From assembly GCA_027624915.1 (NCBI GenBank), contig JAQBTR010000004.1, positions 1 to 49,274 on the forward strand: a DNA stretch of 49,274 nucleotides, written 5' to 3'. A model generated the notes under the pieces. That model made no database searches and was not told the origin of the DNA. It was given only the letters and a program-made list of their open reading frames with translations. The DNA is from a bacterium. Lineage in GTDB: Bacteria; Patescibacteriota; Minisyncoccia; Ryanbacterales; GWA2-47-10b. A program made the translations under genes and the position numbers. Positions 13,974-38,640 of this stretch are shown here, in pieces; within the stretch, counting starts at the first letter, position 1, and every line of letters starts with the position of its first letter.

Positions 13974-14074
13974 ATAAGGAAACCTAGGACTGTTTTTGTT
14001 CTTCTGATTGAGCGCTTCAGATTAATACTTACTGGCTTAGATCGCACCAAAAAGTAACTCTATGTTTCCCTAAT
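13974..14074 (+). repeat. Family A structured repeat, copy 1
   Basis: TTCTGATTGAGCG (14002-14014), TGGC (14033), GATC (14040), inside an inverted repeat that includes the stop codon at 14060. Confidence 0.75.
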
Positions 14075-14407
14075 AACAACCTCTCCACCGACCTCATGGA
14101 TCGGACATCCAAGCGCGATCTCTCGCGCCTCACTCATTGAGGGAGCTACCACAAAAATATATCCCTTTGTATTTTTTATAAAATCGAGCTGATCCTCTGG
14201 TTCAATATCATCTTGTGTTTCATCAAACATACCGGTGGCCTCACTAATAGGGAGACCTGATGTAAAAAATCCGCCATCAATAAGATGCCGAATCCAAACG
14301 CCCCATCGCCTTCGGTATGCAATTTTTTGAGCCTCAATTGGGTAGACTTCATCAAGTTTGCCTCCCCTAAAAATGAAGATAAACTCTTTCATATTACGCG
14401 GGCTCAT
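14060..14407 (-). CDS. YciI/DGPF-like protein
   Basis: FIFIFRGG...W..WI..L...KGYIFVVA.SMSEAREIALGCP...GG.VVIRE pattern. Confidence 0.7.
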   Translation of the reverse strand: MSPRNMKEFIFIFRGGKLDEVYPIEAQKIAYRRRWGVWIRHLIDGGFFTSGLPISEATGMFDETQDDIEPEDQLDFIKNTKGYIFVVAPSMSEAREIALGCPIHEVGGEVVIRET

Positions 14408-14487
14408 TCTCTTACTAACGAGCCTGAACGACTTTCCGTTACCTTCTTGTTATCCTCATTTACCTCCCTTCGCAAGTACCCTGTGGA

Positions 14488-15120
14488 CTAAATATCAAGA
14501 TCCTCGCCTTCCTTAAGCGGTATATATGTAACACCCATTTTTGAAAGTACGTTAGTCGCAATATCATGCCATACATGGGTATTAACAAGCCCGTCGTGTA
14601 TTGGAAAAACTTTCATCGGTCGTACTGTTTTTATATAGGCCAGAGTACTTGATACATTCTGCCATGGAGCACCAATAGGCAAGGCTAGCGTACGAACAGG
14701 TCGTCTTGTTTGTTCCAAAGAACCCCCCGGTATATAGAGAGCCTCTCCTATGTGGTACCCAGTATTATGAGGTGTAAAAACTCCCTCATAGAGAGTCTCG
14801 TGGGCGTGGTCTTCTGCTTCAATCTCAAGATTTTTGATTTTAACGCGCGCGCCGTCAGAAAGAATCTCTGCATCGACAAAAATATTTGATAGTTCTCGCG
14901 CAACTTCATTATTGGTTATAACTCGCACACCTTCATTTTTATTCAAAACATCCTTAATGGTCTCCTCATCAAAGTGATCAGGCCCATTGTTTGTAATCAA
15001 AATAGCATCCAACCCACCAACTCCAAACTGCCCACTTGTAAAACGCCCGGGATCAACCATAATCTTGGCGCCCCCAGACTCAATCACCAAACACGAATGT
15101 CCTATTTTATGTATCTTCAT
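14488..15120 (-). CDS. MBL-fold metallo-hydrolase with a degenerate metal motif
   Basis: GHSCLVIE, VDPG, ILITNNGPDH (in place of THxHxDH) and PIHDG. Confidence 0.8.
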   Translation of the reverse strand: MKIHKIGHSCLVIESGGAKIMVDPGRFTSGQFGVGGLDAILITNNGPDHFDEETIKDVLNKNEGVRVITNNEVARELSNIFVDAEILSDGARVKIKNLEIEAEDHAHETLYEGVFTPHNTGYHIGEALYIPGGSLEQTRRPVRTLALPIGAPWQNVSSTLAYIKTVRPMKVFPIHDGLVNTHVWHDIATNVLSKMGVTYIPLKEGEDLDI

Positions 15121-15134
15121 TTAATTCTTGCACC

Positions 15135-15398
15135 CTACGAGCGATACCTCTTCAAAAGTTCTTTTGTATAGTGTGACTGCCAGTACCCCTTGTGTTCATC
15201 TTGATCGAGCTCTTTTAAAACATTTGCTAATTCTTCTTCGTCTGGTACGATACTCACCAAATCAGGAAACCGAGTTTTAATAAGTAAATACTGTGCATAC
15301 CAACTAGGCCACTCTGGGTCTTCACCGTTTTGCTTTTTGAAAGCCTCATGGTGAGCTTCGGCTGTATCTTCTAGAATTTGATTGATTTCTTCCTCCAT
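15135..15398 (-). CDS. Hypothetical protein (start probably 15398)
   Basis: AEAHHEAFKKQNGEDPEWPSWYAQYL; begins just after the xth stop. Confidence 0.65.
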   Translation of the reverse strand: MEEEINQILEDTAEAHHEAFKKQNGEDPEWPSWYAQYLLIKTRFPDLVSIVPDEEELANVLKELDQDEHKGYWQSHYTKELLKRYRS

Positions 15399-15400
15399 AC

Positions 15401-16171
15401 TTATTTTAAGTCTAACATGAGTGGACAATGATCTGAACCCATTTCATTTGTTAAAATCTTCATATCTTTAACATCTTTCATCAAATCTGGGCTCACAAAG
15501 AAGTAATCAATACGCCAACCAACATTGCGGTCTCTGGCACGCGTCTTCATATCCCAATAGGTGTACATATCAACCTTCTTGGGGTTAAGACTACGAAACA
15601 CATCCACGTATCCTTTTTTCTCTACCTTGTCGAGCCATGCTCGTTCTATTGGCAAGAAGCCTGTGTTCTCAACATTTTCTTTTGGACGTGCTAAGTCAAT
15701 TTCATGATGGGCAGTATTCACATCCCCGCAAAAAATAATCTTCTTTCCTTTCTTGCGCAATTTTTCTGTATGTTTCAAAAACACTTCATAAAACTCAAGC
15801 TTATACTTGATTCGGTGTGGGCCTTGTCCGCCATTTGGAAAGTACACACCAAATACAACTATCTCGCCGTAATCGGCCCAGACAATTCTTCCCTCTTCAT
15901 CAAATTTTTTAATGCCCATACCCTCACCCATGTCCTCTGCAGGAATTCTCGAATATAACGCCGTACCACTATATCCTTTGCGTAATTGTGATGATGAGAA
16001 CACAACTTCGTAATCATCGAGCTCTCTTAATTCTTCTGGAAGCTGTTCTTCTTCTGACTTAGTTTCTTGAAGACAGATAACATCCGGTTTATATTTTTTT
16101 ATAAACGGCAATAACTGGTCACGCTTATGTATCGCACGAAGACCATTTACGTTCCAGGAAACTATACGCAT
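15401..16171 (-). CDS. xth: Exodeoxyribonuclease III / AP endonuclease
   Basis: SWNVNGLRA, CLQETK, GDVNTAH, GWRIDYF and SDHCP. Confidence 0.97.
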   Translation of the reverse strand: MRIVSWNVNGLRAIHKRDQLLPFIKKYKPDVICLQETKSEEEQLPEELRELDDYEVVFSSSQLRKGYSGTALYSRIPAEDMGEGMGIKKFDEEGRIVWADYGEIVVFGVYFPNGGQGPHRIKYKLEFYEVFLKHTEKLRKKGKKIIFCGDVNTAHHEIDLARPKENVENTGFLPIERAWLDKVEKKGYVDVFRSLNPKKVDMYTYWDMKTRARDRNVGWRIDYFFVSPDLMKDVKDMKILTNEMGSDHCPLMLDLK

Positions 16172-16256
16172 TAAAGAAGTATACCACGCTCTAACTTACA
16201 AACTCAGGTCTTTTTTTATTCTGTGAATTTGTTAGTGTCACAAGAGAGGTGCTCGC

Positions 16257-16877
16257 ATGAGTATTGCATGGCTGGACTGGCTTGATATTCAGTGCTCAAA
16301 ACTGTCTCCTGAAAATTTAACCGCATATGATACAGAGCCAAGAAAAAGCGACGTCTTCATCGGCAATCTACCTGAAGACACTTTGAGATTGCGCGCATTC
16401 GCGCACAAATATGTCGATGAATCAAAAGAAACGATGCGCAGATTTTTTGAGTATCACACTGATATGCAGGCACATGCCACTGAGGAATGTGAACGCTTCC
16501 AAGCTGAACTTTCAAAAAAAGCTACCTTTGTCGAAGCTATCGTAAGTAGTTTTTGGGCGTCTGTCTTTCATGAATTCCCCCAGTGTGATTTTCCGTTGGC
16601 CGTGCGCACTAACGGTAGGCTTGTAGTATGTCAGCCGGATGAAACAATGGATCACTTCAATCAAGGTGATGATGATTTTGATCCAGATGAAGACACGGTA
16701 AAAAACTTCTTTGAATGTGTTGGCCCTCCACCAGGAATGCCTGCGTTTGCGGTTATTCATCAAGGCGATCATCATATAAATCAGCCCTCGCTTGGTGCCT
16801 CCAAGCCCCCCGAAGGACTCCCCGTCGGATTCGACCACACTATGTGGGGAGATGACCCAAGCAAAAAAGGTAACTAG
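16257..16877 (+). CDS. Hypothetical protein
   Basis: 206-aa ORF with a GAGG ribosome site and a downstream terminator; no family recognised. Confidence 0.6.
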   Translation: MSIAWLDWLDIQCSKLSPENLTAYDTEPRKSDVFIGNLPEDTLRLRAFAHKYVDESKETMRRFFEYHTDMQAHATEECERFQAELSKKATFVEAIVSSFWASVFHEFPQCDFPLAVRTNGRLVVCQPDETMDHFNQGDDDFDPDEDTVKNFFECVGPPPGMPAFAVIHQGDHHINQPSLGASKPPEGLPVGFDHTMWGDDPSKKGN

Positions 16878-16905
16878 CCCGAAACAACGTTTCGGGTATT
16901 TTTTT
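16878..16905 (+). terminator. Intrinsic terminator
   Basis: CCCGAAAC-AAC-GTTTCGGG followed by a T run. Confidence 0.75.
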
Positions 16906-16957
16906 ACTGCTTGAGTTTATAACATCAATTTGCTAATACATAGTTAGAGGTGATCTT

Positions 16958-17641
16958 ATGCCATACGTACAAAGCATAGACCGTACAGGTCTAGATATTC
17001 TTATTGATGGTGCAGCTCACACTGCAGCAAGCAAATCTACCGACAACACAAAACTACTACAAGGATACAAACAAGCATTTACAACAGTTGCAAGCAATTT
17101 ATTACACTTTGTTCGTGGTGGTTCTGGGTGTGAAGTAAAACAATCCCCATACATGATTCTTGCACGAGGAATCTACGAAGCTGGAGAACAGTATGGATAT
17201 GATGGCGCGTATTTGGGCGAACTCAACTACGCGATAACCAGATTCATACAGAAAGTTCCACAAATCAAAGTTGAGTCTGGTGAGTGGGAACCAGCCAATG
17301 AACTACGATATTGGCTCTATGCCCGTACCGTTGAAGCTCTCATCTGGGCATCAGCTGAAACGCTTTCCTATGGATGTGGTATTGCTGGTGTGTTTGAAGA
17401 TATAAAAGATGAGTATAAACGAAGAGTAAGCGCTCCATACGAGATCACACAACAACTAAAGAATGGAGATTGCTACACCACACCCTACTACACAAAACCA
17501 ATTCCGCTTTATAATCAACAGGGACATATCATCGGTTACATGGAAGTACATATGACACGAGATGCTACCTCCCTCGACAAAGATAGCCTCCCAGATTTCC
17601 TCATGACTCAAGGTATTGTGGACCAAAATCACAAAGACTAG
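16958..17641 (+). CDS. Hypothetical protein resembling the phage-associated DUF6899-type family
   Basis: MPYV...DR, GELNYAITR and EYKRRVSAPYE....NGD motifs; family recalled from memory. Confidence 0.6.
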   Translation: MPYVQSIDRTGLDILIDGAAHTAASKSTDNTKLLQGYKQAFTTVASNLLHFVRGGSGCEVKQSPYMILARGIYEAGEQYGYDGAYLGELNYAITRFIQKVPQIKVESGEWEPANELRYWLYARTVEALIWASAETLSYGCGIAGVFEDIKDEYKRRVSAPYEITQQLKNGDCYTTPYYTKPIPLYNQQGHIIGYMEVHMTRDATSLDKDSLPDFLMTQGIVDQNHKD

Positions 17642-17754
17642 CCGCGACAATGTTCGCGACTTTTTTGTTATAATTTCAAGTGAGGAGCGAGTGAAAGCTT
17701 GCTTACACATCGTCCGAGCGCCGGGATTATCACCACAAGAGTATTTCCATTTTT

Positions 17755-17812
17755 ACCACAGGGGCACTTCTTGTTGTCAGCTACTCACTATCGTTCGTAG
17801 GACAACAATGTC
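17755..17812 (-). repeat. Family B hairpin repeat, copy 1 (with a partial duplicate at 17731-17747)
   Basis: Reverse complement aligns with 27497-27560 and 28884-28947. Confidence 0.75.
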
Positions 17813-17924
17813 GTATACTACCCCAGGGCAGCCTCTCTTTTCTTTCAGAAAATTCACCTCCTCCTTTCAGTCGTTAAAAATATGGTCACAAGACGAAGTG
17901 CTCTGCTATACTACGCTCATTCAT

Positions 17925-18359
17925 ATGAAAATGAACAAAAAACAATTTCTAGAGTCACTCAAAGATGTTTACTGCCGAATTGCCGTTACCAAAAATGGTG
18001 TTGGTCTGGTTGCTATTCGCCCCATACCAAAAGGAACTGACCCGTTCAAAAACTGTGATCCGTTCGGTGACGTACTTGAAATTCCCGAAGACGAGTTTGA
18101 AAAATATAAAGCACCAAATTCTGCCAAAATGATAGTTCGTGACTTTTGCGCGTTACAAGACGGCGTGTACTTCGTCCCCGACTATGGCATTGATGCGCTC
18201 CCCAAATGCTATTACTTAAACCACGACTCCAAAAAAGCCAATATGATAACTCGTGACCGCGGCGAAATATTTCTCGCCAAACGTCACATAAAAACCGGTG
18301 AGGAATTACTCGCTAACTACGATGAGTATCACGAATCCCGCCACTTCGATCGCAATTGA
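17925..18359 (+). CDS. SET-domain protein (putative lysine methyltransferase); start moved to 17925/17931
   Basis: GVGLVAIRPIPKG, YYLNHD and FLAKRHIKTGEELLANY correspond to SET motifs I, III and IV. Confidence 0.8.
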   Translation: MKMNKKQFLESLKDVYCRIAVTKNGVGLVAIRPIPKGTDPFKNCDPFGDVLEIPEDEFEKYKAPNSAKMIVRDFCALQDGVYFVPDYGIDALPKCYYLNHDSKKANMITRDRGEIFLAKRHIKTGEELLANYDEYHESRHFDRN

Positions 18360-18409
18360 CCACGTGATGCATTCCGTGCAAGCATAATCATAAAGATAAG
18401 GAGCATCAC

Positions 18410-18883
18410 ATGCGAAGATTGCTTTTAGCAGCTACACTCATGCTATGCGTTCCACATGTCGCACGCGCAACACATTTGGGACCCGTCATTTTTGGAATCG
18501 AACGACATGAAGCGGCACTCGTGTGCAAGACCTTGTATGGCGCTACATTTATTGCCAAGCACGAAGAAGCTTCAATAAAAGCTGGCGAGACATTTGTTCA
18601 ATATCAAAACAGTATTCGAAACAGTGAATTTAAGCCAGACTGTAGATACCTCACTGTTCGACACCTTCCGAGAGAAACCATGTATCAATGGAGGGGTAGA
18701 TATGTTGTGGAAAATGACTTAAAAGATGAAAATCGAACAGATTTTCCGGCAATGACATTTAGCATTATACGTTCAGATGCATTTAAAAATAGTGGCGACT
18801 TTCTTGAAGTCTTTATTATCCTACCAGATGAAGCCCCCGCCCCATGTACACATTCTGAAGTTCTTCTGGAAAAAACCATCTAA
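18410..18883 (+). CDS. Secreted hypothetical protein
   Basis: Signal peptide MRRLLLAATLMLCVPHVARA; AAGGAG upstream. Confidence 0.6.
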   Translation: MRRLLLAATLMLCVPHVARATHLGPVIFGIERHEAALVCKTLYGATFIAKHEEASIKAGETFVQYQNSIRNSEFKPDCRYLTVRHLPRETMYQWRGRYVVENDLKDENRTDFPAMTFSIIRSDAFKNSGDFLEVFIILPDEAPAPCTHSEVLLEKTI

Positions 18884-18900
18884 CCTCCGCCTGGGAGGTT
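18882..18900. terminator. Hairpin between convergent genes
   Basis: AACCTCC-GCCTG-GGAGGTT. Confidence 0.55.
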
Positions 18901-18948
18901 ATTTTACTATGCGCTTTTTGTCTTAATTATAAGCGCTGAGGACTATAG

Positions 18949-19524
18949 TTATTCAAACCTCACTGGAATCTCAAGCGCATCATCATTCTCTGGTAGGCCG
19001 GAAGGATTATCTCTTTGCAAAATCAGTGTCCCTCTACGCATAAAATCTGGGTCGCCATCCTTGTATGGAGATTCAAATGCAATTACCGATTCATAAGGAA
19101 CAAAACTTTCTGTCATCCATTCCCCCTGTGCTGTCCCATAATGCTGCGCGATTATTTTGCCGTCCCAGTCAGTCAACACAACGGGGAAACTTGCCTCAAA
19201 AAACCACAGTCCACGTGCCTTACCAGTTATAGTAAGTGGACTTTTGATTACGTCATTTGAGTGTGGCATATCAATCATAATGAGATCACTTTTTTCGATT
19301 GTGTTGCCGATAGACTCTGTATATGTCTCGCCACTTCCATCACGGCACGTACGCGGGTAACTTTCTGCAACTGAATATCCTGCTTTAGCACAACTTGCAA
19401 AATCAGTAACCTTGGGTGGTTTTTGCCAGTACGAAGAAATACCGCGTTGACCTACAGTGTACCCAACATATACCCCTAGGATAAACGTAACTATAAGAAA
19501 GGTGAGTTTTGTTTTAATAAACAT
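18949..19524 (-). CDS. Gmad2 immunoglobulin-like domain surface protein
   Basis: TM anchor, FASCAKAG....ESYPRTC module, ITGKARGLWFFEASFPV and LILQRDNPSGLPEND. Confidence 0.8.
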   Translation of the reverse strand: MFIKTKLTFLIVTFILGVYVGYTVGQRGISSYWQKPPKVTDFASCAKAGYSVAESYPRTCRDGSGETYTESIGNTIEKSDLIMIDMPHSNDVIKSPLTITGKARGLWFFEASFPVVLTDWDGKIIAQHYGTAQGEWMTESFVPYESVIAFESPYKDGDPDFMRRGTLILQRDNPSGLPENDDALEIPVRFE

Positions 19525-19527
19525 AGA

Positions 19528-19710
19528 TTATTTTTTATCTCTTTTATGTTTTTTAGGCTTCCAATCCTCTACAATTATCTTTTTACCACGCCTCGTGAGC
19601 ACAAGTTTTTGCCGTTCGCGAATTTTAAGCTCTTTAACAATCTCTGCTGGGATATTTATCGTAAGACTCCTTTTACCCACGCGAATGACTTTTCTCACAT
19701 GTTTTTCCAT
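19528..19710 (-). CDS. AbrB/MazE/SpoVT-family DNA-binding protein
   Basis: RKVIRVGKRSLTINIPAEIVKELKI...KIIVE swapped-hairpin pattern. Confidence 0.85.
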   Translation of the reverse strand: MEKHVRKVIRVGKRSLTINIPAEIVKELKIRERQKLVLTRRGKKIIVEDWKPKKHKRDKK

Positions 19711-19720
19711 ACATACATTG

Positions 19721-19780
19721 TGCTACGTTACATGTAACGTAGCAAGTAAAACTGTGTAACGTAGCATGCTACGTTACACA
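19721..19780. promoter_or_regulatory. Two perfect palindromes built from one 12-mer (putative operator)
   Basis: TGCTACGTTACA-TGTAACGTAGCA (19721-19744) and TGTAACGTAGCA-TGCTACGTTACA (19755-19778), starting 11 bp from the AbrB-like start codon. Confidence 0.75.
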
Positions 19781-19785
19781 GAGAG

Positions 19786-19878
19786 TATTACAGAAATCTT
19801 ACTTTTTTGTTTCCGATTGACCGCACAACGCAACCTCATCGTGGCGAAGATCACAAACAAAGTAAGGTTTCTGTAATA
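19786..19878 (+). repeat. Family A structured repeat, copy 2
   Basis: TTCCGATTGACCG (19811), TGGC (19842), GATC (19849), inside a closing stem of about 25 bp. Confidence 0.75.
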
Positions 19879-19887
19879 TCAAAGAGT

Positions 19888-19958
19888 GCATTAATTTTTG
19901 TTTCTGATTGAGCGCTCAAAATAACAACCCGATGGCTTTGATCGCAAAGAAATAAAGC
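19888..19958 (+). repeat. Family A structured repeat, copy 3
   Basis: TTCTGATTGAGCG (19902), TGGC (19933), GATC (19940). Confidence 0.75.
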
Positions 19959-19979
19959 AGTATTTTGCCACTGGAAAGC

Positions 19980-20008
19980 TTGACAATTAATAATTTTCAT
20001 GATATGAT
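19980..20008 (+). promoter_or_regulatory. Sigma70-type promoter
   Basis: TTGACA-17 bp-TATGAT upstream of the 20081 gene. Confidence 0.75.
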
Positions 20009-20080
20009 GCTCGACAGAACTTCCGTAAGACCTCGCCAAATTGGCAGGCTGGAACAAGAACATATAGAGGAGATGACTTA

Positions 20081-20848
20081 ATGAACCGACGAACCTTGAT
20101 TTGGAGAGTTGGAGGCTTCGGCCTCCTACTGATGATTGCGGTAGGCCTATTTGCCTACCAGGACTGGACGGAAGAACCCCCCGTCGACGTCGTTCGCGGC
20201 GTACCTCCGGTCTCACGAGCCCTGCAACACGTCTCCTATGCCGTCGACGACATGGCTGACATGTCGGAAGCGGAACGCGGAAAGTACCTCGAAACGAACT
20301 TCCCTCATCTGCCACAAGACGTCGTCTACTATCTGCGGGACCTCGGCAAGATCCACCCGAGTCGAGAGATCACCCGGGTCGAATTCCGCTATGGAAGCCT
20401 TGGGGACATCATGGCTGAGTCCGGCGACGACATCGAGAGGGTAAACGGCTACTTCGAGAACCAGCTCATTGCCATCGTCTACGTGGAGCAAGGGGTCGAA
20501 CCCTACATCGTGATCGTCGAGTGTCTCAATGGCACCTTCATCACAGTGGATAGGTGGAAAACTCTTCAGGCAGTCGGCGAGCATGGCATCACCGAGTCAT
20601 TCGTTATCGGTCGCGGTGAAGGACTCACACATCACGTGAGCTACGGCACCGCCATCGATTTGGCCGAGCGCTTCGAACTGCCGCTCTACGTCGGTAACCG
20701 GATGAGGTCGGACCGCAGGATCACACCGAATGAGGCACGTCTCATCGATACCGATCACGAGCAGGTAACGGTGAAAGTGGGTGTCGGCGACTTCTTCGAC
20801 CTTCGTCGTATGGAGTACCGCAAAGCCGGTCGCCAACAACAGTCCTAG
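20081..20848 (+). CDS. GC-rich orphan protein with an N-terminal TM/signal segment
   Basis: 255-aa ORF with its own promoter, GAGGAG site and terminator; visibly more G/C-ending codons than its neighbours. Confidence 0.7.
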   Translation: MNRRTLIWRVGGFGLLLMIAVGLFAYQDWTEEPPVDVVRGVPPVSRALQHVSYAVDDMADMSEAERGKYLETNFPHLPQDVVYYLRDLGKIHPSREITRVEFRYGSLGDIMAESGDDIERVNGYFENQLIAIVYVEQGVEPYIVIVECLNGTFITVDRWKTLQAVGEHGITESFVIGRGEGLTHHVSYGTAIDLAERFELPLYVGNRMRSDRRITPNEARLIDTDHEQVTVKVGVGDFFDLRRMEYRKAGRQQQS

Positions 20849-20886
20849 CCCAAAAAGGATATCGGAGAATCCTCAACTTCTCTCCG

Positions 20887-20950
20887 AGAGCCAGGCAATG
20901 TCCTGGCTCTTTTTTTATACAAAACAAAAATCGCCCTAGGGCGATTTTTG
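20887..20950. terminator. Two adjacent intrinsic terminators between convergent genes
   Basis: AGAGCCAGG..CCTGGCTCT plus T run (20887-20916); CAAAAATCGCCC-TA-GGGCGATTTTTG (20925-20950). Confidence 0.75.
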
Positions 20951-20967
20951 TATAGTCTAGTTTTGGA

Positions 20968-21789: not shown

Positions 21790-21908
21790 ATCTCTTTAAT
21801 ATAGACTAACGAGTAAATAATCCACCTATGCTATGCCAATAGAGTACCACACTTCCACAAAATAGCAAACCCTGAATAACCACCTAGGCATACCAGTAAA
21901 CTCGCATA

Positions 21909-21937
21909 TTGACTTTCATATTAAATCATGTTATATT
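21909..21937 (+). promoter_or_regulatory. Sigma70-type promoter with extended -10
   Basis: TTGACT-17 bp-(TGn)TATATT about 120 nt upstream of the helicase ATG. Confidence 0.65.
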
Positions 21938-22057
21938 CAGGTCAAGCTTTTGATACTCGTGTAGGGCTCACTGGCTCGGCAGATTGCACTGCAATCGCGT
22001 TAATTATTACTTCCTGCACCGCCCGAAACACGTAAAGCGTTTCATCTAACTAAATAT

Positions 22058-23392: not shown

Positions 23393-23398
23393 TCAAAC

Positions 23399-23432
23399 AA
23401 AAAACAGCCCCGCCTAGGCGGGGCTGTTTTTT
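23399..23432. terminator. Bidirectional intrinsic terminator
   Basis: AAAAAACAGCCCCGCC-TA-GGCGGGGCTGTTTTTT. Confidence 0.85.
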
Positions 23433-25311: not shown

Positions 25312-25474
25312 GGGATTGCTTTCAAACTTGCTTTCGTTATTAAAATTCCCAAATTTTGAGCGGAGCGAAGATAAAAATTTTGAACTTAATGCCGTAGGTA
25401 TTGGTAAAAAATTTTTATCAAGCTAGAGCCAAAATTTAGGGATTTTGGTAGAAATGGAGTTTGAAAGTGATCCC
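25312..25474 (+). repeat. Family C long hairpin, copy 1
   Basis: GGGATTGCTTTCAAACT/AGTTTGAAAGTGATCCC outer stem; core TGAACTTAATGCCGTAGGTATTGGT (25381-25405). Confidence 0.75.
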
Positions 25475-28861: not shown

Positions 28862-29136
28862 GTTGCCGGACTAGGATTCCGCTTCGTGACATTGTTTCCC
28901 TACGAACACGGTGAGTAATTGGAAACAAGAAATGCTCTTGTGGTGCTAGAACCCGTCGTCGTAAACTCCTCCTTGAGAACCCACGGTTCTCAAACGCTTC
29001 GCTATTTCCTCCACGGGGAAACAAATGTTTCCCCGACCCCCTTCTTAGGTTCGAATCCCCTATATATTAGCAAACAAAAATAAAATAACCCACCCCCTTG
29101 GCGAGTTATTTTATTTATGTTGCCGGACTAGGATTC
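28860..29136 (-). mobile_element. tRNA-Gln-linked mini-element bounded by 20-bp direct repeats of the tRNA 3' end
   Basis: ATGTTGCCGGACTAGGATTC at 28860-28879 and 29117-29136; inverted T-arm copy at 29046-29058; contains family B copy 3. Confidence 0.6.
28884..28947 (+). repeat. Family B hairpin repeat, copy 3
   Basis: TCGTGAC.TTGTTT...AAACAAGAAAT.CTCTTGTGGTGCT. Confidence 0.8.
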
Positions 29137-29190
29137 GAACCTAGATAGGCGGCACCAAAAGCCGCAGTCCTACCATTAGACGATCCGGCA
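29120..29190 (-). tRNA. tRNA-Gln (anticodon UUG), CCA not encoded
   Basis: TGCCGGA/TCCGGCA acceptor stem, GCGGC-TTTTGGT-GCCGC anticodon arm, CTAGG-TTCGAAT-CCTAG T arm. Confidence 0.95.
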
Positions 29191-29196
29191 ATATCT

Positions 29197-29874: not shown

Positions 29875-29924
29875 GAATATATGTTATACCCATATATTAC
29901 CATGGTTTTTATGATTATCAAGCA

Positions 29925-31028: not shown

Positions 31029-31185
31029 AGAGGTACTCTAGCAAGTTTCTCCTGCTACCTCAAACCAAAAAACTAAACACACGTCTGAACGGTTTTTGAA
31101 GCTATAAGCTTCAACCTCACAACCGTCCTAAAGACGGTGAGAATGAGTGAAGAGGTAATATTAAGTTTTTTGTTGTACGTGCGTT

Positions 31186-31346
31186 CACCCCACAGACGAA
31201 TATTTAGTCGTAACGAAAGGCACAAATTTCTTGCGAAAAAAGTGAAGGATGAGGAGGTAATATCCAGCGGATATTTTGACGAGGAGTGAGCTTTTTGTAG
31301 CTAAAATTTGAGACTTGCAGTAGACTAGGGATTTGTCTGTGGGGTG
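31186..31346 (+). ncRNA. Family E 161-bp structured element, copy 1 (candidate ncRNA or mini-element)
   Basis: Co-linear with 47643-47803; the 24-bp outer stem overlaps the GtrA stop codon. Confidence 0.6.
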
Positions 31347-31951
31347 TTATCCTTAAAAACTATGAGTTTGTATCCAAAAAAGTTCCAGAAGAGAGACACT
31401 AGAGTTGCCGCTACCTTAGCTACAACCACGAATTGTTGCTGGTTAAAACTATCACGTGGAGCATATTCAATCATCAAAAACAAGATAGCCGTGTTTATTA
31501 CAATACCCATTATGGTGACGGCAACAAAAATCAAAAATTCTTTTCGCGAAGGAGCATCAGTTTCTTTGAATGTCCAACCGCGCTGCCAAAAATAACTATT
31601 TACAATAGCGATTGAAACGGAAATAACATTAAATAACAAAAGCGTTGCGCCATCATACGAAGCATTTGTTGACGTCAAATACGTAAGAATACCTGCATCC
31701 ACCGTAAAGTTCATCAACCCAACGATTGCAAAGCGTCCCATTTGTTTTAACGCAATAATATGTGAGAAGAGACGAGAGGCAATGACATATGCAACATACT
31801 CACCAATTGGTAATACAACAAACAAAGACCAAAGAGGTATAACAAAGCCCCCAAACTCACGAGATATATCGCCATATGTCACCAACAAAGACGCAAAAAA
31901 TGCGGTTACCAAACCGATTATTGCAGCATAGATATAATCTTTTTTAACCAT
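31325..31951 (-). CDS. GtrA-family membrane protein
   Basis: RFAIVGLMNFTVD, NSYFWQRGWTF and WNFFGYKLIVF. Confidence 0.9.
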   Translation of the reverse strand: MVKKDYIYAAIIGLVTAFFASLLVTYGDISREFGGFVIPLWSLFVVLPIGEYVAYVIASRLFSHIIALKQMGRFAIVGLMNFTVDAGILTYLTSTNASYDGATLLLFNVISVSIAIVNSYFWQRGWTFKETDAPSRKEFLIFVAVTIMGIVINTAILFLMIEYAPRDSFNQQQFVVVAKVAATLVSLFWNFFGYKLIVFKDNTPQTNP

Positions 31952-34364
31952 GTTTATATCGTTTCGTAATATCTGCTTCTACCTCTGCTCTATTGCTACC
32001 ATATTTCTTACGTGAACCCTCTATAATTTCTTCCCTTTGGGCTTTGTTACCATCTTCTGGCTTAGGGATAATGATATTAAATGCTTTTGATGTTTGCCCG
32101 TTTATTAATAGCTTAACATATGCATTGCGATTGTTAATGTTCATAAGATCTTGAGCATGAAATACAGGCTCAAACTGCTTCTCCATAAATTCACCGTCCT
32201 CAGATCCTACCCGGAATGCAATCATTGTGCCTACGTTACCAAAGACCGCCTTTCTGATATCATCATCAAGCTGACCCAAAAACTGATGTGCAATCACAAG
32301 ATTGAGCCTATACTTACGAGCTTCTGACAAGATAGTTGATATTGATTTGGTCGTGACATTTTGAAACTCATCTATATAGCAATAGAAGTCGCGTCTGGCG
32401 GCTTCTGCTATATCTGCTCGTGAAAGCGCTCCTATTAATATCTTGCCTACAATTATATGCCCCAAAAGAGCAGCATTAAGCTCGCCCAAGCGCCCCTTGG
32501 ATAGATTTATTAAAAGAATTTTGCCCTGATCCATCACCTCACGAAATCGAATAGTTGAATGTTCTTGCGCAATAATCGGTCGCATAATGTCGTTGGACAA
32601 GAATGTATCGAACTTGGATGTGATATATGGAACCATATTTTGTAAACTTGCCTCACCTCCAGCCTTGGTTGCTATCTTTTCCCAAAAGGTATTGACTACA
32701 ACATTACTTGAACGAGAGAGTTTGTACTTACGAAATTCTTCGTCCACCAAAACCCGCTGTACCTCCAAAAGCGTATTGCCAGATTGTGGGTCCTGCATAA
32801 CAAGCATGGTCGCATTTCGGAAATACTGCTCAAACATTGGCCCACCAGCAACCGACATGTTGTATAGCTTATTAAATATATCGAGAAGCTCATTTACGAT
32901 TGTTGTTTTTTGTTCTGGGTAACGCATATCATACTCCAAAAAATTAAGCCCCATAGGTCGCTCAACATCAGCCGGATTGAAGTAAATTACATCGTCAAAT
33001 CGTTCTTTTGGTACTGTTGCCAAAAGATCCTCTACATCTTGTCCATGTGGATCAATAAAGCAGACACCGCGTCCCGCTTGTATGTCTTGGCGTGCCATTT
33101 CTTTGAGGAGAGTAGATTTACCCGTTCCCGTCTGACCTATGACATACATATGACGGCGGCGATCATCCTCTGTTATATATACATTTTTTTGAGTGCCACG
33201 AAATGTGCTCTCACCAATTTTGAGACCCTGACCCGCAAGCTCAACTGGAGCTGGCGCCTCACGACTCTTGAGATATTGAACATTGGTTTGCGCAAACCCA
33301 GAGTATGGAAAATGAAATAACGTAGCCAACTCTTGCGCAGATGTATAGAGAGAATTACTATTTTTGAAAAGTCTGAATGAAAAATTATATACAAGCTCCT
33401 CAAGCGCCTTTCCACCAACTCGTATAAAACCAAACTGATTGCCTTCTGGATTATCAAATTGGCTAAAAGCCGACTCAAGACCTTGTAGTATAGTACCTGT
33501 TTCTTCTGGTGTTTCTGCTGAGACAAGTATACGAATGTTTACATCAAATGGATTATATGAAGCCTTACCTTCAATTTGGTGTACGAGGTTTTCATCAAAT
33601 GGCTTGTTTGGTTCTGGGTTGTCTGATGCTTTTTTAGGAGACTTGGCAAGTTGTTTTAGTTCTTGCTTGGTTCCGCCAAGTGCTTCTTTGAGAGACTTGC
33701 CACGACGCAAGTCTTGCCCAACGCGCTTACCCTCAACATTGCGAGCGCTTCGTGCTGGACGCATAACAAACTGTATGCTCGCACCATCTCCTGTGTGTTT
33801 CAATTTGGCAAAGGCGCCAGTAATTGCCTCAAGAGGGTCTTTGCTGAGTTCATTATATGTCTTAAGACTTAGTAGATTATTCTTCTTGAGCTTGAGAATT
33901 GAGCCGCCTGTCGTACCTGTTGGATGAAAAATATTGTAGTCATTCGTTTCTTCAACCTTGGCAGAAGGCATAAAGGAGTTTAGTTGATTTGCAAAATAGC
34001 TAGAGAAACGCCTCGGCATAGAAGCATAGAACACTACTTCTTCGCCAACATGCGGCAATGCTACCTCAAACGTAATTGTAGACGCGCCAAACCGCATATC
34101 ATGCCACGGTGTTGTTCTAAGAGGTTCGAGTGAAGAATAAAACTGCTCCATGGCTGCCATAATTTCTTTTGGCTCTTTTTGTTTTGCCTCCCCTGATTCT
34201 GTGTGTTCATTTTTTGGTAACAACACACGATACAATACCGTATCGAGTGCTCCAGATAATTCAAACTTACGTTTTGGCATAACAACCAATACATAAAAAA
34301 GAATAGTAGCCCCAATCGTAAGACCTGCGACACCAAAAAATACTGTTAGTAAAATATCAGCCAT
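31944..34364 (-). CDS. VirB4/TraD/HerA-like P-loop ATPase (T4SS coupling-protein-like) with an N-terminal membrane anchor
   Basis: RRRHMYVIGQTGTGKS, FIDPHG, YIDEFQN and LSEARKYRL. Confidence 0.88.
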   Translation of the reverse strand: MADILLTVFFGVAGLTIGATILFYVLVVMPKRKFELSGALDTVLYRVLLPKNEHTESGEAKQKEPKEIMAAMEQFYSSLEPLRTTPWHDMRFGASTITFEVALPHVGEEVVFYASMPRRFSSYFANQLNSFMPSAKVEETNDYNIFHPTGTTGGSILKLKKNNLLSLKTYNELSKDPLEAITGAFAKLKHTGDGASIQFVMRPARSARNVEGKRVGQDLRRGKSLKEALGGTKQELKQLAKSPKKASDNPEPNKPFDENLVHQIEGKASYNPFDVNIRILVSAETPEETGTILQGLESAFSQFDNPEGNQFGFIRVGGKALEELVYNFSFRLFKNSNSLYTSAQELATLFHFPYSGFAQTNVQYLKSREAPAPVELAGQGLKIGESTFRGTQKNVYITEDDRRRHMYVIGQTGTGKSTLLKEMARQDIQAGRGVCFIDPHGQDVEDLLATVPKERFDDVIYFNPADVERPMGLNFLEYDMRYPEQKTTIVNELLDIFNKLYNMSVAGGPMFEQYFRNATMLVMQDPQSGNTLLEVQRVLVDEEFRKYKLSRSSNVVVNTFWEKIATKAGGEASLQNMVPYITSKFDTFLSNDIMRPIIAQEHSTIRFREVMDQGKILLINLSKGRLGELNAALLGHIIVGKILIGALSRADIAEAARRDFYCYIDEFQNVTTKSISTILSEARKYRLNLVIAHQFLGQLDDDIRKAVFGNVGTMIAFRVGSEDGEFMEKQFEPVFHAQDLMNINNRNAYVKLLINGQTSKAFNIIIPKPEDGNKAQREEIIEGSRKKYGSNRAEVEADITKRYKHG

Positions 34365-34737
34365 TTGACTCTACCTCTAACACACCACGATTCTTCATGT
34401 CGTCGAGAAATTTATCGACAAGTGCATCATGAAATGCATCAATCAAATACGGATTGTGTGTATTTCTAACCTGTTTTGTAGCCTCTACAATTCCATGTGC
34501 AAATGCAGTCTGTACTAAAACAGCAACATCTTTGTCGATTTCGTCATCATCTGGTTTCGTTGGAGGTACTTGTGGTGGTGGTACACTTGACTTGATATTT
34601 TCTGTGTGTTCTTTTATTGATTCGGACACAACTTCTTTTGAACTTTGCCCTGCAACCTCTTTTCTCTTCTCGAGAATTTTCTGTTCGAGGTAATTGATCT
34701 CCTCTTCTGGAGAATTAAAATTTGGTATTTCCGTCAT
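34357..34737 (-). CDS. Hypothetical protein coupled to the ATPase gene
   Basis: NPYLIDAFHDALVD motif; 8-bp overlap with the ATPase gene. Confidence 0.75.
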   Translation of the reverse strand: MTEIPNFNSPEEEINYLEQKILEKRKEVAGQSSKEVVSESIKEHTENIKSSVPPPQVPPTKPDDDEIDKDVAVLVQTAFAHGIVEATKQVRNTHNPYLIDAFHDALVDKFLDDMKNRGVLEVESNG

Positions 34738-34792
34738 ACACAGCCATTATAACAGAATGTTCTCTAATATAGTATAATAACTGGGTATCGTT

Positions 34793-36421
34793 ATGTCGGA
34801 AAAACCACAATATATTCTTCTTGTCATTATCCTGGTTGTTGCAGGATTTTTGCGTCTCTGGCAACTTGGCTATAGTCCAGAAAACCTAGCCCAAAGCCCA
34901 CCTACTCCAGCCTCAATCCCACCCGGACTCTTTTCTGATGAAGCAATGAATGGAAATAATGCATCCGAAGCCCTTGATACGGGTAACTATAAGGTGTTTT
35001 ATCGTGAAAATAATGGCCGTGAGGGGCTCTATATTAATCTCCAGGCCCTTTCACTAAGATTCTTTGGTCATACTGCATTTGCGCTCCGTCTTGTCAGCGC
35101 ACTCTTTGGAATACTATCCATATGGGCCTTGTGGTGGTTTGCTCGCGAATATACAAAAAATGAATGGATAGCACTTGCCTCATCATTCTTTATGGCAACG
35201 AGCTTTTGGCATATTCTTTTTTCGCGTGTTGGTTTTCGTGCAATTATGGCGCCGTTCTTCCTATCGGCGGGTCTTGCCGCTCTTTATTACGGATGGAATA
35301 GAGCTAGCGATGAAACAAAACACTCAAAGATTATTATCATAAGCGCTCTTGGTGGTGTTTTGTTTGGTCTTGGTTTTCATTCCTATATCGCTTACCGAAT
35401 CGCGCCACTCTTGTTAATTCCTATTATTTGGTCATTTATCAAACTAGCCAAAAAATCAAAACACTGTGTACTGTGTATCCCTGCCATTTTTCTTTTATTT
35501 ACATTTATTGCAGGACTCCCACTCGCCTACTACTTCTTACAAAATCCCGGGGACTTTCTTGGACGTACATCACAAATTTCTATAATGAACAGCGATAATC
35601 CGATTGGTGCGTTCTTAATAAATTCTGGTAAAACAATTCAATCATTATATTTTGTTGGAGACTTTAACTGGAGACATAACTATGCAGGATTTCCAGCTCT
35701 TTGGTGGCCGGTAGCCGTATTCTTTACAATTGGTGTTATTGAAGCTGTAAGAAGAAAATACTGGATGTTATTTATTTGGTTTTTTGTGATGCTTTTGCCG
35801 GTAGCCTTTTCATCCGAGGGTGTTCCTCATTCGCTACGCGCAATTATTATGCTACCTCCTATCATGATTATTGCGGGTGTTGGGCTCCAACATGCTTGGA
35901 AACTATTTGCCGATTGGCTCAAACGAATGAAAACAGCTCACACGGAAGCTTCTTCCATCATTTTGCGCATTCAAAAAGCATTGCCTATTCTTGGTCTTGC
36001 TATTTTATTTGCTATATTCCTTTGGAATTTCGACCTCTACTTCCAAAGATGGTCTATCAGACCAGAAGTAAAACTAGCGTTCAACCGTGAAGAGCATCGT
36101 ATCGCTCTATTTCTAAATGAACTCCCAGAAGAGCTCCCAAAGTATGTGCTACTTGATCTTGACGATACCGTAGACCGCACTGGACGCCCAATGAGCATAC
36201 AGCCAATACTATTTGTCACAGATACGTATCTACCACATGCTGAAGGTCATAAGAACATACACTATATAACTCCTTTGGATGTACCAAATATTGATTGCCA
36301 AGAAGATTGTATAGTCATCCCACCAAAAAACACGATACAATCAATGAATCATCTTAAGGAATTCTTTCCTTCTATGAATCTCCAAAAAACAGAAGGTATA
36401 CTTGTCGCAAGGCCTAGGTAA
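34793..36421 (+). CDS. GT-C fold glycosyltransferase (GT39/ArnT-like)
   Basis: PPGLFSDEA acidic dyad in the first loop, WHILFSR and many TM helices. Confidence 0.88.
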   Translation: MSEKPQYILLVIILVVAGFLRLWQLGYSPENLAQSPPTPASIPPGLFSDEAMNGNNASEALDTGNYKVFYRENNGREGLYINLQALSLRFFGHTAFALRLVSALFGILSIWALWWFAREYTKNEWIALASSFFMATSFWHILFSRVGFRAIMAPFFLSAGLAALYYGWNRASDETKHSKIIIISALGGVLFGLGFHSYIAYRIAPLLLIPIIWSFIKLAKKSKHCVLCIPAIFLLFTFIAGLPLAYYFLQNPGDFLGRTSQISIMNSDNPIGAFLINSGKTIQSLYFVGDFNWRHNYAGFPALWWPVAVFFTIGVIEAVRRKYWMLFIWFFVMLLPVAFSSEGVPHSLRAIIMLPPIMIIAGVGLQHAWKLFADWLKRMKTAHTEASSIILRIQKALPILGLAILFAIFLWNFDLYFQRWSIRPEVKLAFNREEHRIALFLNELPEELPKYVLLDLDDTVDRTGRPMSIQPILFVTDTYLPHAEGHKNIHYITPLDVPNIDCQEDCIVIPPKNTIQSMNHLKEFFPSMNLQKTEGILVARPR

Positions 36422-36425
36422 ACAC

Positions 36426-38240
36426 ATGAAAAAAATAACAACAATATTAGCGGGATTCCTCTTCTTCGTTATGTTTGTTCTCGCGTTTTTCTCGTCCTAC
36501 GATGATTCGGTTATATTTGATGAAACCGCACATATCGGCGCTGGATATTCGTATATTACAGAATTTGATATGCGACTCAATCCAGAACATCCACCACTCT
36601 TCAAAGATTTAGCGGCTCTACCATTACTTACACAAAATCTTAACTTCCGAACGGATACCGACGCATGGCAAAACAAAGTAAATGGCCAATGGGATGCTGG
36701 GGGTGGATTAATTTTTGAATACGGTAACGATCCACAGAAAATAATACGTCTCTCTCGTCTACCCATTATGCTCATGAGTGTTTTAGTAGGATTTCTCTTT
36801 TTCTTCTGGGCACGAAGGCACTTTGGTAAACGTGTTGCATTACTTGGTGCGTTCTTCTATGCATTCTCTCCTACCGTTATTGCACACTCCCGTTTTGTCA
36901 CAACTGATATTGCGGCAGCCCTTGGATTTTTGATTGGTATATCAACATTTGTTGATTTTCTTGAAACGCGCTCAAAAAAACATTTAATTGTAGCTGGGCT
37001 CGCATTTGGTATAGCGCAAAGCCTTAAGTTTTCACTTTTCTTATTGGGCCCTATTTCTATCGTGCTTGCAATCCTTTGGGCCTATTCAAACCGAATGGAT
37101 ATAAAGAATTTTGGGAAGCTTGCAGGACAGGTTCTCTTGATCTTTATTATTGGAGCCTTACTTGTATGGCTTATCTATATCCCACATGTCTGGAACTACC
37201 CTCAAGAAAAACAACTCAGTGACGCGAAAACTCTCATCAGTACCTTTAAGGTAAAACCATTTGTTGATCTTGATTTGTGGCTCATCAAAAATGATTTCAC
37301 CCGCCCACTTGGTCATTACTTAATGGGCGTCATGATGGTCACACAGCGAACAGCTGGTGGTAACAGTGCATACTTCTGGGGCGAGGTTTCTGCCGATGGA
37401 TGGCCGCACTACTTCCCAATAGTATACCTACTCAAAGAAACCCTTGGATTTCATATCCTGACGCTCATGGCTCTTGTGCTCGCTTTCTTGCGCATCAAAC
37501 GCAAGAAAGAGCGTGGTAACGCTAGAGATTGGATTCGTAATAACTTTGCGCTCACGGCGACTTTATTCTTTGTTGGATTTTACTGGATTTTGACCATCTT
37601 TAACCCCCTCAACATAGGAATACGACATCTTTTGCCGATTTTTCCTTTTGTCTATATTCTCGTCGCGCGCGAAATTATTATATGGATTTCTGGAGGTGAA
37701 GCCTCTTATGGAAACCTGATGCAAACAATAAAATCTCTGTATAAAAACTTTGTAGCACCTGCTCCAAAAATTATGATTCTTGCGCTCATCATGCTTTGGA
37801 TATCTGGTAGTGTTCTTCTCGCCTTTCCGTTTTATCTTTCATACTATAACGAACTTGCTGGTGGAACGCTCAATGGGTACAAAATTGCGACTGATTCTAA
37901 CTATGATTGGGGTCAAGACCTAAAAAGACTTGCAAATAAACTAGAAATGGACTACCCAGAAGAAGACACTGTATACCTTCACTACTTCGGTGGTAGTTCA
38001 CAAAATAGTGGTGCACAACAATATTACCTAGGCGACAAGTTTAAGGCACACTATTCGAGCTTTGGACCACCACCATCCGGCTCACTCTTTGCTATATCTG
38101 TAAACGAACTCATGGGTCTCTGGGCAACACCAGTCGCCGGCTTCCCAGAACAAGAACCACAAAATAGCTACGAATGGCTCAAACCCTTAGAACCAATCGA
38201 CCGAGGCGGAACTTCAATCTTCATATACCGCATACCATAG
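36426..38240 (+). CDS. GT-C fold glycosyltransferase (GT39/ArnT-like), second paralog; start probably 36426
   Basis: IFDETAHIGAG, NPEHPPL, GIRHLLP and DSNYDWGQDL. Confidence 0.88.
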   Translation: MKKITTILAGFLFFVMFVLAFFSSYDDSVIFDETAHIGAGYSYITEFDMRLNPEHPPLFKDLAALPLLTQNLNFRTDTDAWQNKVNGQWDAGGGLIFEYGNDPQKIIRLSRLPIMLMSVLVGFLFFFWARRHFGKRVALLGAFFYAFSPTVIAHSRFVTTDIAAALGFLIGISTFVDFLETRSKKHLIVAGLAFGIAQSLKFSLFLLGPISIVLAILWAYSNRMDIKNFGKLAGQVLLIFIIGALLVWLIYIPHVWNYPQEKQLSDAKTLISTFKVKPFVDLDLWLIKNDFTRPLGHYLMGVMMVTQRTAGGNSAYFWGEVSADGWPHYFPIVYLLKETLGFHILTLMALVLAFLRIKRKKERGNARDWIRNNFALTATLFFVGFYWILTIFNPLNIGIRHLLPIFPFVYILVAREIIIWISGGEASYGNLMQTIKSLYKNFVAPAPKIMILALIMLWISGSVLLAFPFYLSYYNELAGGTLNGYKIATDSNYDWGQDLKRLANKLEMDYPEEDTVYLHYFGGSSQNSGAQQYYLGDKFKAHYSSFGPPPSGSLFAISVNELMGLWATPVAGFPEQEPQNSYEWLKPLEPIDRGGTSIFIYRIP

Positions 38241-38253
38241 GAGAGACTGACAC

Positions 38254-38395
38254 ATAAAAAGCATGTCAAAGGTTTTATATCATTCTCGCCCAGCCAGCGC
38301 TGGGCTCCGAGGCTTCAGCTCTTTTGCTTTGACTTACATCAAAGACCGTGCCAAAAGAGCCTCAGAACCCATAAAACAATTGACATGCTTTTTAT
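38254..38395. repeat. 142-bp MITE-like branched hairpin with 16-bp perfect terminal inverted repeats
   Basis: ATAAAAAGCATGTCAA (38254-38269) / TTGACATGCTTTTTAT (38380-38395). Confidence 0.7.
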
Positions 38396-38495
38396 TCTTG
38401 ACTGTCATGCTCTCCACACCCACAAAAAAATAGAAAGTAACTTTTGCACTTCTCGCTTGAGCTCCCAGCATCCTACAATCCGCGGTTGTGGTCAC

Positions 38496-38640
38496 TTTTG
38501 ATTGAGCGCTCCAGGTAACCACCACGGCTCCCCATCCCAACAAAAAATCACCCAGAACTATTTTATACTTCCGATTGAGCGGTTTATTTAACCACCTTCA
38601 CGGCAAAGATCGTATAAAAATGGTTCTGGGCGTTTTTTGT
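38496..38640 (+). repeat. Family A structured repeats: degenerate copy 5 and intact copy 4 in tandem
   Basis: TTTTGATTGAGCG (38496) with CGGC (38525); TTCCGATTGAGCG (38569), CGGC (38601) and GATC (38608) inside the 38540-38640 stem. Confidence 0.75.

Follow-up and report, generated by a model that had tools for sequence, protein, structure and literature searches.

The window analysed here, at its full length, is a metagenome contig of 49,274 bases from a chromosome of the Patescibacteria (Paceibacteria), and its intergenic spacers carry a family of short hairpin-forming sequences with a conserved core, family A. The window holds bacterial housekeeping genes (type IV pilus, SerRS, FtsQ-like, Ddl, DEAD-box helicase, ABC-F protein and glycosyltransferases); the nearest proteins are 65–77% identical (PilB 65%, SerRS 71%, RpoC 77%) and are labelled Patescibacteria, Paceibacterota or Candidatus Ryanbacteria. 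The right-hand 44 kb of the window correspond to a section of an 83-kb scaffold whose source is an aquatic sample, with 99.995% identity over the 19.8 kb compared. Positions 1–4897 form a separate scaffold of 4,897 bases in the ENA assembly, and the 83-kb scaffold stops at about that point; for this reason we take the window to be a different assembly of the same sample. Together with an extension beyond the window end, 68 kb were examined in total, on which the family A copy number rests: seven cores at four sites, in one contig and one sample. The copies, with their scores under R1, a covariance model of family A built from five copies, are as follows (A' is a variant of the core and E a separate module).

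13978–14069, plus strand: copy c1, core TTCTGATTGAGCG-N19-GGC-TTA-GATCGC at 14002–14045, R1 75.6 bits; inner stem TTTTTG/CAAAAA and outer stem GGAAAC/GTTTCC, the closing stem being weak (p = 0.10); a bidirectional terminator (13917–13950) on one side and, on the other, the stop codon (14060–14062) of the minus-strand gene 14060–14407.
19785–19879, plus strand: copy c2, core 19811–19854, TTCCGATTGACCG-N19-GGC-GAA-GATC (a GACCG variant), R1 77.7 bits; closing stem of ~26 bp, GTATTACAGAAATCTTACTTTTTTGT / ACAAACAAAGTAAGGTTTCTGTAATAT, minimum free energy -33.5 kcal/mol, z -6.7, duplex p = 0.001; in the divergent spacer 19525–20080, upstream of a promoter-like TTGACA-17-TATGAT at 19980–20008.
19895–19950, plus strand: copy c3, core 19902–19945, TTCTGATTGAGCG-N19-GGC-TTT-GATC, 91 nt past c2, R1 82.6 bits; closing stem of 6 bp only, TTTTTG/CAAAGA, with flank pairing not above chance.
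38446–38495, plus strand: module E, made up of GCACTTCTC, a small hairpin, TCCCAGCATCCTACAATCC, a hairpin and TTGTGGTCAC, joined directly to c4.
38496–38548, plus strand: copy c4, variant type A', head TTTTGATTGAGCG kept, no GATC, C-rich tail ..GGTAACCACCACGGCTCCCCATCCCAACAAAAAA, R1 55.4 bits.
38551–38630, plus strand: copy c5, core 38569–38613, TTCCGATTGAGCG-N20-GGC-AAA-GATC, R1 79.8 bits; closing stem of 18/19 nt, CCCAGAACTATTTTATAC / GTATAAAAATGGTTCTGGG, z -4.0 (plus strand) and -5.2 (minus strand), duplex p = 0.001; A-run 38542–38547 before and T-run 38633–38638 after; with c4 between the convergent genes 36402–38240 (plus) and 38641–39453 (minus).
L109(-) 3017–2966, off-window: c7, variant A', ~85% identical to c4.
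L109(-) ~2950–2851, off-window: module E again, directly 5' of c8.
Fourth site, off-window: c8, an intact core, TTCTGATTAAGCG..AGC-ATA-GATC, 25.4 bits.

The first-pass annotation had described five plus-strand cores, four intact (14002, 19811, 19902 and 38569) and one degenerate (38496), and all five read at these positions; in the four intact copies GATC follows the start of the core by 38, 38, 38 and 39 nt, by direct reading and by the ends of pattern matches alike. The uniform orientation that it reported extends to the new site outside the window, and the family was recovered independently by a repeat finder, as repeats D3 and D7. Matches to GATTGAGCG-N18-21-GGC-N3-GATC number three in the window against none in 100 shuffles, and GATTGAGCG with at most one mismatch is matched 20 times against 9.6 expected, a count not reached by any shuffle. 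Intact copies in the window score 75.6–82.6 bits with R1, and the window has no further copy, the next best match scoring 11.4 bits. The AAC(C/A)ACC tract proposed for the loop is present in three of the five copies and missing from the others.

A consensus fold computed with RNAalifold from the five intact copies gives them a common hairpin architecture. Its closing stem, P1, differs in sequence from copy to copy and runs from 3 to ~26 bp; above it, on the 5' side, lies an unpaired stretch containing UUCY, which is a clean 4-nt bulge in c2, c5 and c8. There follow P2, a helix of 4 bp (GAUU/GAUC) that never varies and whose last pair is U.G (5/5 copies), an asymmetric internal loop in which GA faces three variable bases, and P3, an invariant 2-bp helix GC/GC, topped by a variable apical part of ~19–22 nt. 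Within P1 both sides have changed in 11 of 13 pairs and the structure remains 87% paired across the five copies, values that none of 500 shuffles reach and that compare with 36–50% pairing in slid controls. The flank-flank duplexes of the copies at 19811 and 38569 amount to -26.1 and -27.4 kcal/mol (each p ~0.001 against 4000 random places), and the whole hairpins of c2 and c5 are likewise stable (z as listed). The closing stems quoted earlier for these two copies are thus strong, whereas those of 14002 and 19902 are weak, with ~6 bp each beside the core and p = 0.10 and 0.54 in the same test.

The proposed pairing of GAUU with GAUC is present in the consensus fold, but P2 and P3 never vary and consequently supply no covariation evidence for or against themselves; because the 3' arm of P1 starts right after GATC in c2, c5 and c8, leaving the clean UUCY bulge, the GAUU/GAUC register is supported. 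With covariation found and no match in Rfam, the earlier idea of a structured element survives, in a form narrower than had been claimed since the outer stem alone covaries.

The fourth site has the same orientation and is found 5.4 kb beyond the end of the window, in the spacer that separates the rpoC stop from the gene after it. It consists of A' + E + A, directly past the rpoC stop, and a stem of ~20 bp closes E + c8, with an A-run before and a T-run after. The three blocks of E are identical at its two occurrences (9/9, 19/19 and 10/10), and its two inter-block hairpins differ between them in size and sequence. What had been suspected to be a sixth, decayed unit at 38446–38495 receives no score as a copy with the core model and, because the same blocks precede c8 outside the window, is a distinct 5' module. 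Likewise, the likeness of c4 to c7 argues that A' is a propagated variant and not the product of random decay; c4 itself has the appearance of a chimera, with the head of an E-linked core joined to the tail of A', an arrangement to be expected if tandem cores recombined. The E + c8 unit shares the layout of c5 (A-run, stem, U-run) and has z -6.1 on the plus and -7.6 on the minus strand. The left part of the 400-nt spacer that holds E, c4 and c5 is occupied by another structure, a foldback of ~142 nt (38254–38395) that begins just past the glycosyltransferase stop at 38240, has 25-nt arms that are 92% complementary and encloses an inner hairpin.

Database searches point to a narrow distribution. 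In the window, Rfam 15 at gathering thresholds returns two tRNAs only, and a relaxed search of sites 1–4 gives nothing above sub-threshold noise (all <=24 bits), in keeping with the earlier statement that no riboswitch or ribozyme consensus is matched. A strict pattern of 20 bases has 27 matches in the GTDB genome collection (596 Gb) and 75 in the metagenome collection, all in GC-rich or unrelated coding sequence; one such chance match is a gene from Clostridia (named hits include Agathobaculum) that recurs in dozens of gut contigs, and neither collection yielded a relative. Viral contigs contain no match to the strict pattern and at least 120 to a relaxed pattern of 16 bases, all in GC-rich coding sequence and none with the TTCY prefix, and no match to the strings of module E or of a second hairpin family described below. 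The locus is present in a single run and in no RNA-seq run; the contigs of that one run, searched with c4/c5 at 80% likeness, yield the locus itself only.

In ~112 kb from at least five relatives R1 finds no family A copy. The spacer at site 3, between the ends of the FtsQ-like and glycosyltransferase genes, measures 400 nt here, and in four syntenic loci the two genes range from overlapping to 244 nt apart, with no copy; at site 4, 366 nt separate rpoC from the next gene, compared with 40 nt between rpoC and FtsK in the syntenic relative L114. In another relative (L112, 9971–13213) the rpoC-ftsK spacer houses a YafQ-type toxin–antitoxin pair and a diversity-generating retroelement (bAvd and reverse transcriptase), and this position is an insertion hot spot in the group. 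At sites 1 and 2 the nearest PilB relative, L236, is not syntenic. Family A is specific to this lineage, and sites 3 and 4 look like inserted or expanded spacer DNA.

Might these elements be a dedicated structured non-coding RNA family, be it sibling small RNAs, a protein-bound ribonucleoprotein module or a small self-cleaving ribozyme? We regard this as possible, if doubtful. On such an account the RNA would be transcribed from the plus strand and terminated by the c5 and c8 closing stems with their U-runs, and the C-rich apical loops would provide surfaces for interaction. The conserved core and covarying P1 are in its favour, as are the invariant single-stranded blocks of E with hairpins of variable length between them, the better consensus fold of the plus strand (-6.9 against -3.8 kcal/mol on the minus strand), the U.G pairs conserved on the plus strand in P2 and in the E hairpin CUACAA/UUGUGG (both sites), the clear plus-strand specificity of the companion hairpins of ~165 nt, and a kink-turn-like feature, a variable bulge of constant 3-nt length between GGC and GA that faces GA-GC; small ribozymes, too, typically occur in tandem and without a link to particular genes. 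Conversely, P2 and P3 are without variation, relatives lack copies, Rfam has no match, ribozyme classes included, the units have no promoter-like site at a consistent upstream position, and at three of the four sites the plus strand is antisense to the flanking genes or behind a terminator.

The functional strand of family A is ambiguous, with sequence evidence pointing both ways. The plus-strand U-G wobbles noted in the first-pass annotation do occur, in the c2, c3 and c5 stems and in P2, but the overall count of G.U pairs is higher on the minus strand (18 against 13), so that a choice of strand from G.U versus A.C counts gave no clear answer for this family; the z-scores of c5 and of the c8 unit also favour the minus strand. 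Since the elements at three of the four sites follow the stop of a minus-strand gene and precede a terminator, the minus strand would seem the likeliest to be transcribed.

No consistent position relative to genes is apparent, c1 and c4/c5 lying between convergent genes, c2/c3 between divergent ones and site 4 between co-directional ones. Both c5 (T6 at 38633–38638, A6 upstream) and the c8 unit have the layout of a bidirectional intrinsic terminator, each ~10 nt after a stop codon (that of the FtsQ-like gene and that of rpoC), and we infer a terminator role for these two; c1, c2 and c3 have no U-run and do not share the form. Like Rho-independent terminators, c5 and c8 place long, G+C-poor stems between an A-run and a U-run, but what would be the loop spans 45 to ~150 nt and is conserved and internally structured, in contrast to the usual 3–8 nt. 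The ordinary terminators of this contig have stems of 8–16 bp and loops of 3–5 nt, and the loops of family A are far larger than the 3–8 nt admitted by the terminator scan. At 2313–2348, 20916–20959 and 23399–23432 lie perfect or near-perfect palindromes of 17–22 nt with an A-run, a GC core and a T-run, whose arms meet without a spacer, as in AAAAAACAGCCCCGCCT|AGGCGGGGCTGTTTTTT; in contrast to the family A hairpins, they probably represent the ordinary bidirectional terminators of this genome. In the divergent spacer just upstream of c2 (19718–19782), the 12-mer TGTAACGTAGCA occurs four times as two perfect palindromes, TGCTACGTTACA|TGTAACGTAGCA and TGTGTAACGTAGCA|TGCTACGTTACACA, the second of which also scores as a minus-strand terminator; these palindromes look like operators.

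The same genome carries a second family of hairpins, of ~165 nt, with six members, all in the plus orientation of the window.

25312–25474, plus strand: second-family hairpin between two co-directional minus-strand genes.
31186–31346, plus strand: second-family hairpin, likewise placed.
42818–42981, plus strand: second-family hairpin, likewise placed.
47643–47803, plus strand: second-family hairpin, likewise placed.
L111(-) 6313–6475 and 6574–6734, off-window: two second-family hairpins in tandem, in the SecF-rpoB spacer.

These hairpins are strand-specific, being 14–22 kcal/mol more stable on the plus strand, where they have 39 G.U pairs against 8 on the minus strand. Their outer stems are copy-specific and their inner motifs (TTTCG, TTGAGCG, GTAGCC and GTAGAAA) are common; two copies that are 82% identical differ by seven compensatory pairs. 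A model of this family, R2, has no convincing match in the relatives' loci scanned, nor has the family a match in Rfam. The heptamer TTGAGCG is common to both families, with 9 of its 11 plus-strand occurrences in the 68 kb falling inside their elements, and one ~165-nt copy carries TTCAGATTTTGAGCG-A-GGCGAAGAT, which resembles the family A core with its two halves brought together and the apical insert absent; the two families may be related. A bolder possibility, which we consider unlikely, is that family A and the UUGAGCG-sharing ~165-nt hairpins together form an undescribed functional class of structured RNA in a deep Patescibacteria lineage, whose invariant bulge/helix/3x2-loop core docks a dedicated RNA-binding or RNA-guided protein or is a new small self-cleaving motif, and whose stems and apical loops carry copy-specific information.

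We tentatively favour, with slightly less than even confidence, the view that family A is a dispersed hairpin repeat confined to this lineage, which behaves in the manner of REP, ERIC and BOX elements in gene-end spacers and whose core is a probable protein recognition site. In our ranking this comes first, followed by the dedicated structured RNA and then by two DNA-level explanations taken up below, an element acting as single-stranded DNA and, last, a duplex protein-binding site. The fit to a dispersed repeat comes from the restriction to one lineage, the insertion-like state of the syntenic sites, the occurrence in any type of spacer, the tandem, variant and chimeric copies and the existence of a second hairpin family; the tandem pairs and triplets, the propagation of A' and the chimeric c4 speak for repeat-like dynamics. 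Of the structured RNA or protein-binding module first proposed, the shared hairpin and the covarying P1 are borne out, but the distribution points to a dispersed repeat of insertion type.

The elements would have entered, or arisen in, the gene-end and intergenic spacers of this lineage and may have multiplied by local duplication and by recombination between cores. They would be co-transcribed with neighbouring genes and act as RNA hairpins; in c5 and c8 the closing stem with its A-run and U-run could serve as a bidirectional intrinsic terminator directly past the stop codon, and a stabilising activity is conceivable too. The conserved core would be recognized by a nucleic-acid-binding protein, encoded by an element or by the host.

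REP elements (with their BIME arrays), ERIC and BOX elements resemble family A in being short, non-coding, multi-copy, hairpin-forming, lineage-restricted and placed in intergenic spacers or 3' untranslated regions, including positions that follow a stop codon and precede a terminator, at which such repeats can stabilize or terminate transcripts. All are, in addition, modular and often tandem, BOX elements being built from modules A, B and C much as family A comprises E, A and A'. The difference lies in the pattern of similarity: those repeats are alike over the whole element, stems included, whereas family A aligns over the ~45-nt core only, local alignments ending at the inner stem. Furthermore, its orientation is uniform and not alternating, and the GTAG-type signature of REP elements is lacking.

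Several points weigh against the dispersed-repeat interpretation. Stems that are wholly different around a conserved core are the classic signature of a selected structured RNA; recently copied REP, ERIC or BOX elements, or miniature inverted-repeat transposable elements (MITEs), would not show copy-specific stems around a conserved core. The conservation pattern, atypical for REP, ERIC and BOX repeats, is what selection on a fold or on a recognition site leaves behind, and the alternation of constant blocks with hairpins of variable length in E argues for selection on fold as well. The 68 kb yielded no transposase, Y1/HUH enzyme, integrase or reverse transcriptase, and the elements have no terminal inverted repeats or target duplications. 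Insertion relative to the relatives is established at sites 3 and 4 only, the terminator form applies to c5 and c8 and not to c1–c3, and seven cores at four sites make a thin base.

The uniform orientation of all seven cores invites a second account of spread, in which the elements are single-stranded-DNA hairpins processed by a Y1/HUH enzyme in the style of REP-RAYT or IS200/IS605-derived palindrome-associated elements, and in which this orientation reflects the direction of replication. The GC skew of the plus strand is negative in every 5-kb bin across the window (-0.06 to -0.18), so that the window probably lies on one replication arm, and both the bulges and G.T pairs of the hairpins and the insertion-like distribution at sites 3 and 4 would suit such an origin. 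We nevertheless think it improbable: Y1/HUH enzymes recognize conserved hairpins whereas the stems of family A are copy-specific, there is neither a 5' tetranucleotide of GTAG type nor an alternation of orientation, and no Y1/HUH gene appears in the 68 kb. The usual skew rule assigns the minus sequence here to the exposed template of the lagging strand, yet it is the plus sequence that folds better and for which the companion hairpins are specific. A REP palindrome in the strict sense (20–40 nt, imperfect, with a stem sequence kept from copy to copy) was set aside because the core forms no palindrome, each copy has stems of its own and no GTAG stands at the 5' foot. The genes of the 68 kb include no RAYT (Y1-transposase) gene, which REPs typically flank.

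Alternatively, the cores could be double-stranded-DNA sites for a lineage-specific recombinase, nucleoid or partition protein, with boxes of 13 bp and 10 bp roughly three helical turns apart. The two conserved blocks do have a fixed spacing, with 19–20 nt between them, and GATC is conserved although it is under-represented in the window (115 against 180). Such a site, however, needs no flanking inverted repeats and does not predict their compensatory variation, the boxes are asymmetric, and tandem copies are separated by variable distances (73, 91 and 168 nt). The bracketing of the 14.1–19.5 kb genes by c1 and c2/c3 might recall the ends of an island, yet c1 and c3 share only ~70% identity and the interval between them has no integrase, for which reasons island attachment sites were rejected too; overall we find a duplex site very improbable, the least likely of the explanations ranked here. 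As a separate matter, GATC is depleted window-wide (115 observed, ~180 expected), CTAG is also under-represented, and every intact family A core retains its GATC.

Family A was also compared with other known classes. A MITE does not fit in that the ends share GAT only (GATTGAGCG versus GATCNNNGCC) and the flanks are inverted and copy-specific, not direct repeats; ERIC- and BOX-like elements agree with family A in copy number, intergenic position, hairpin formation and modularity, and differ from it in whole-element similarity. For a hammerhead ribozyme (three stems about the boxes CUGANGA and GAAA), CUGAUUGA has an extra U, no GAAA is conserved and N3 varies, and Rfam gives no hammerhead match; a 10-nt match of c8 to loop B of the hairpin ribozyme is not common to the other copies. 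A cis-regulatory leader or riboswitch is at odds with the placement of c1, c4 and c5, which face the 3' end of a convergent gene, of c2 and c3, which lie upstream of the promoter-like site of the plus-strand gene at 20081, and of site 4, which is antisense to its neighbours. As to a small ORF, the plus frames have stops within the core, and a minus frame (A-Q-S-E), open in some copies, lacks a start codon and is interrupted in c5 and c8. Read as a promoter, TTGAGC as -35 would need a 23-nt spacer to TTAGAT, and the spacing is unfit for sigma-54. Integron attC sites carry their conserved boxes at the stem base, the reverse of the arrangement in family A, and DNA uptake sequences would occur on both strands, within genes and far more often.

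A likeness to the kink-turn (ribosomal Kt-7 and box C/D RNAs) was also considered; in a kink-turn a 3-nt bulge is followed by tandem sheared G.A/A.G pairs between a Watson–Crick C-stem and an NC-stem. The likeness consists of GGC, a variable 3-nt bulge and GA opposite GA-GC, with C-G closing the bulge and U opposite U following the GA pairs. The corresponding signature is found in c1, c3 and c5, is shifted in c2, and in c8 has A where G is required (position 2n). It departs from a kink-turn in that the C-stem has only 2 bp before a G.G clash and the NC-stem is without Watson–Crick closure; no L7Ae-type protein was identified, and the simple GAUU/GAUC register is more parsimonious, requiring fewer assumptions.

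TIGR arrays of parasitic bacteria and phages have tandem units with flanking stems that vary yet are always palindromic, and short conserved motifs (PMC12045711). Each unit has two spacers of 8–12 nt between box D (UG) and box C (CCA), and arrays of 5–15 or more units lie beside a Tas gene (PMC12045711). Family A shares the tandem units, the variable palindromic flanking stems and the short motifs inside, and differs in having one long conserved head and tail and copies scattered over 40 kb. TIGR-Tas and box C/D guide arrays were consequently rejected, there being no dual-spacer symmetry and, among the called genes, no Nop domain by Pfam scan or in the precomputed Pfam annotations.

Returning to the dispersed hairpin repeat, what stands out is that spacers of 0–244 nt in the relatives have grown here to 150–600 nt and are filled with conserved-core hairpins whose stems turn over by compensating changes. 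Patescibacteria genomes are tiny and tightly packed, and to our knowledge almost nothing is known of non-coding RNA and repeat biology in the phylum. If these are selfish repeats, the reduced genomes of episymbionts would tolerate repeat expansion, and the elements would offer a handle on the ends of transcription units; if the core instead works as a module for a protein or a ribozyme, they would represent a new RNA class in a phylum that has no genetic system.

Two further features of the window lie apart from both hairpin families. The response-regulator receiver gene beside pilB (13040–13516, minus strand) appears broken into two ORFs, 13355–13516 and 13040–13291, through a frameshift, as a pseudogene or by an assembly error. 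Within ~100 nt of each of the two tRNA genes, tRNA-Gln (minus) and tRNA-Ala (plus), its T-arm and 3' end are repeated in inverted orientation (29037–29058 with 29131–29152 and 45371–45396 with 45432–45457), allowing a hairpin of 22–26 bp with the 3' half of the tRNA in the primary transcript; these copies may be tRNA fragments or terminator-like pairings.

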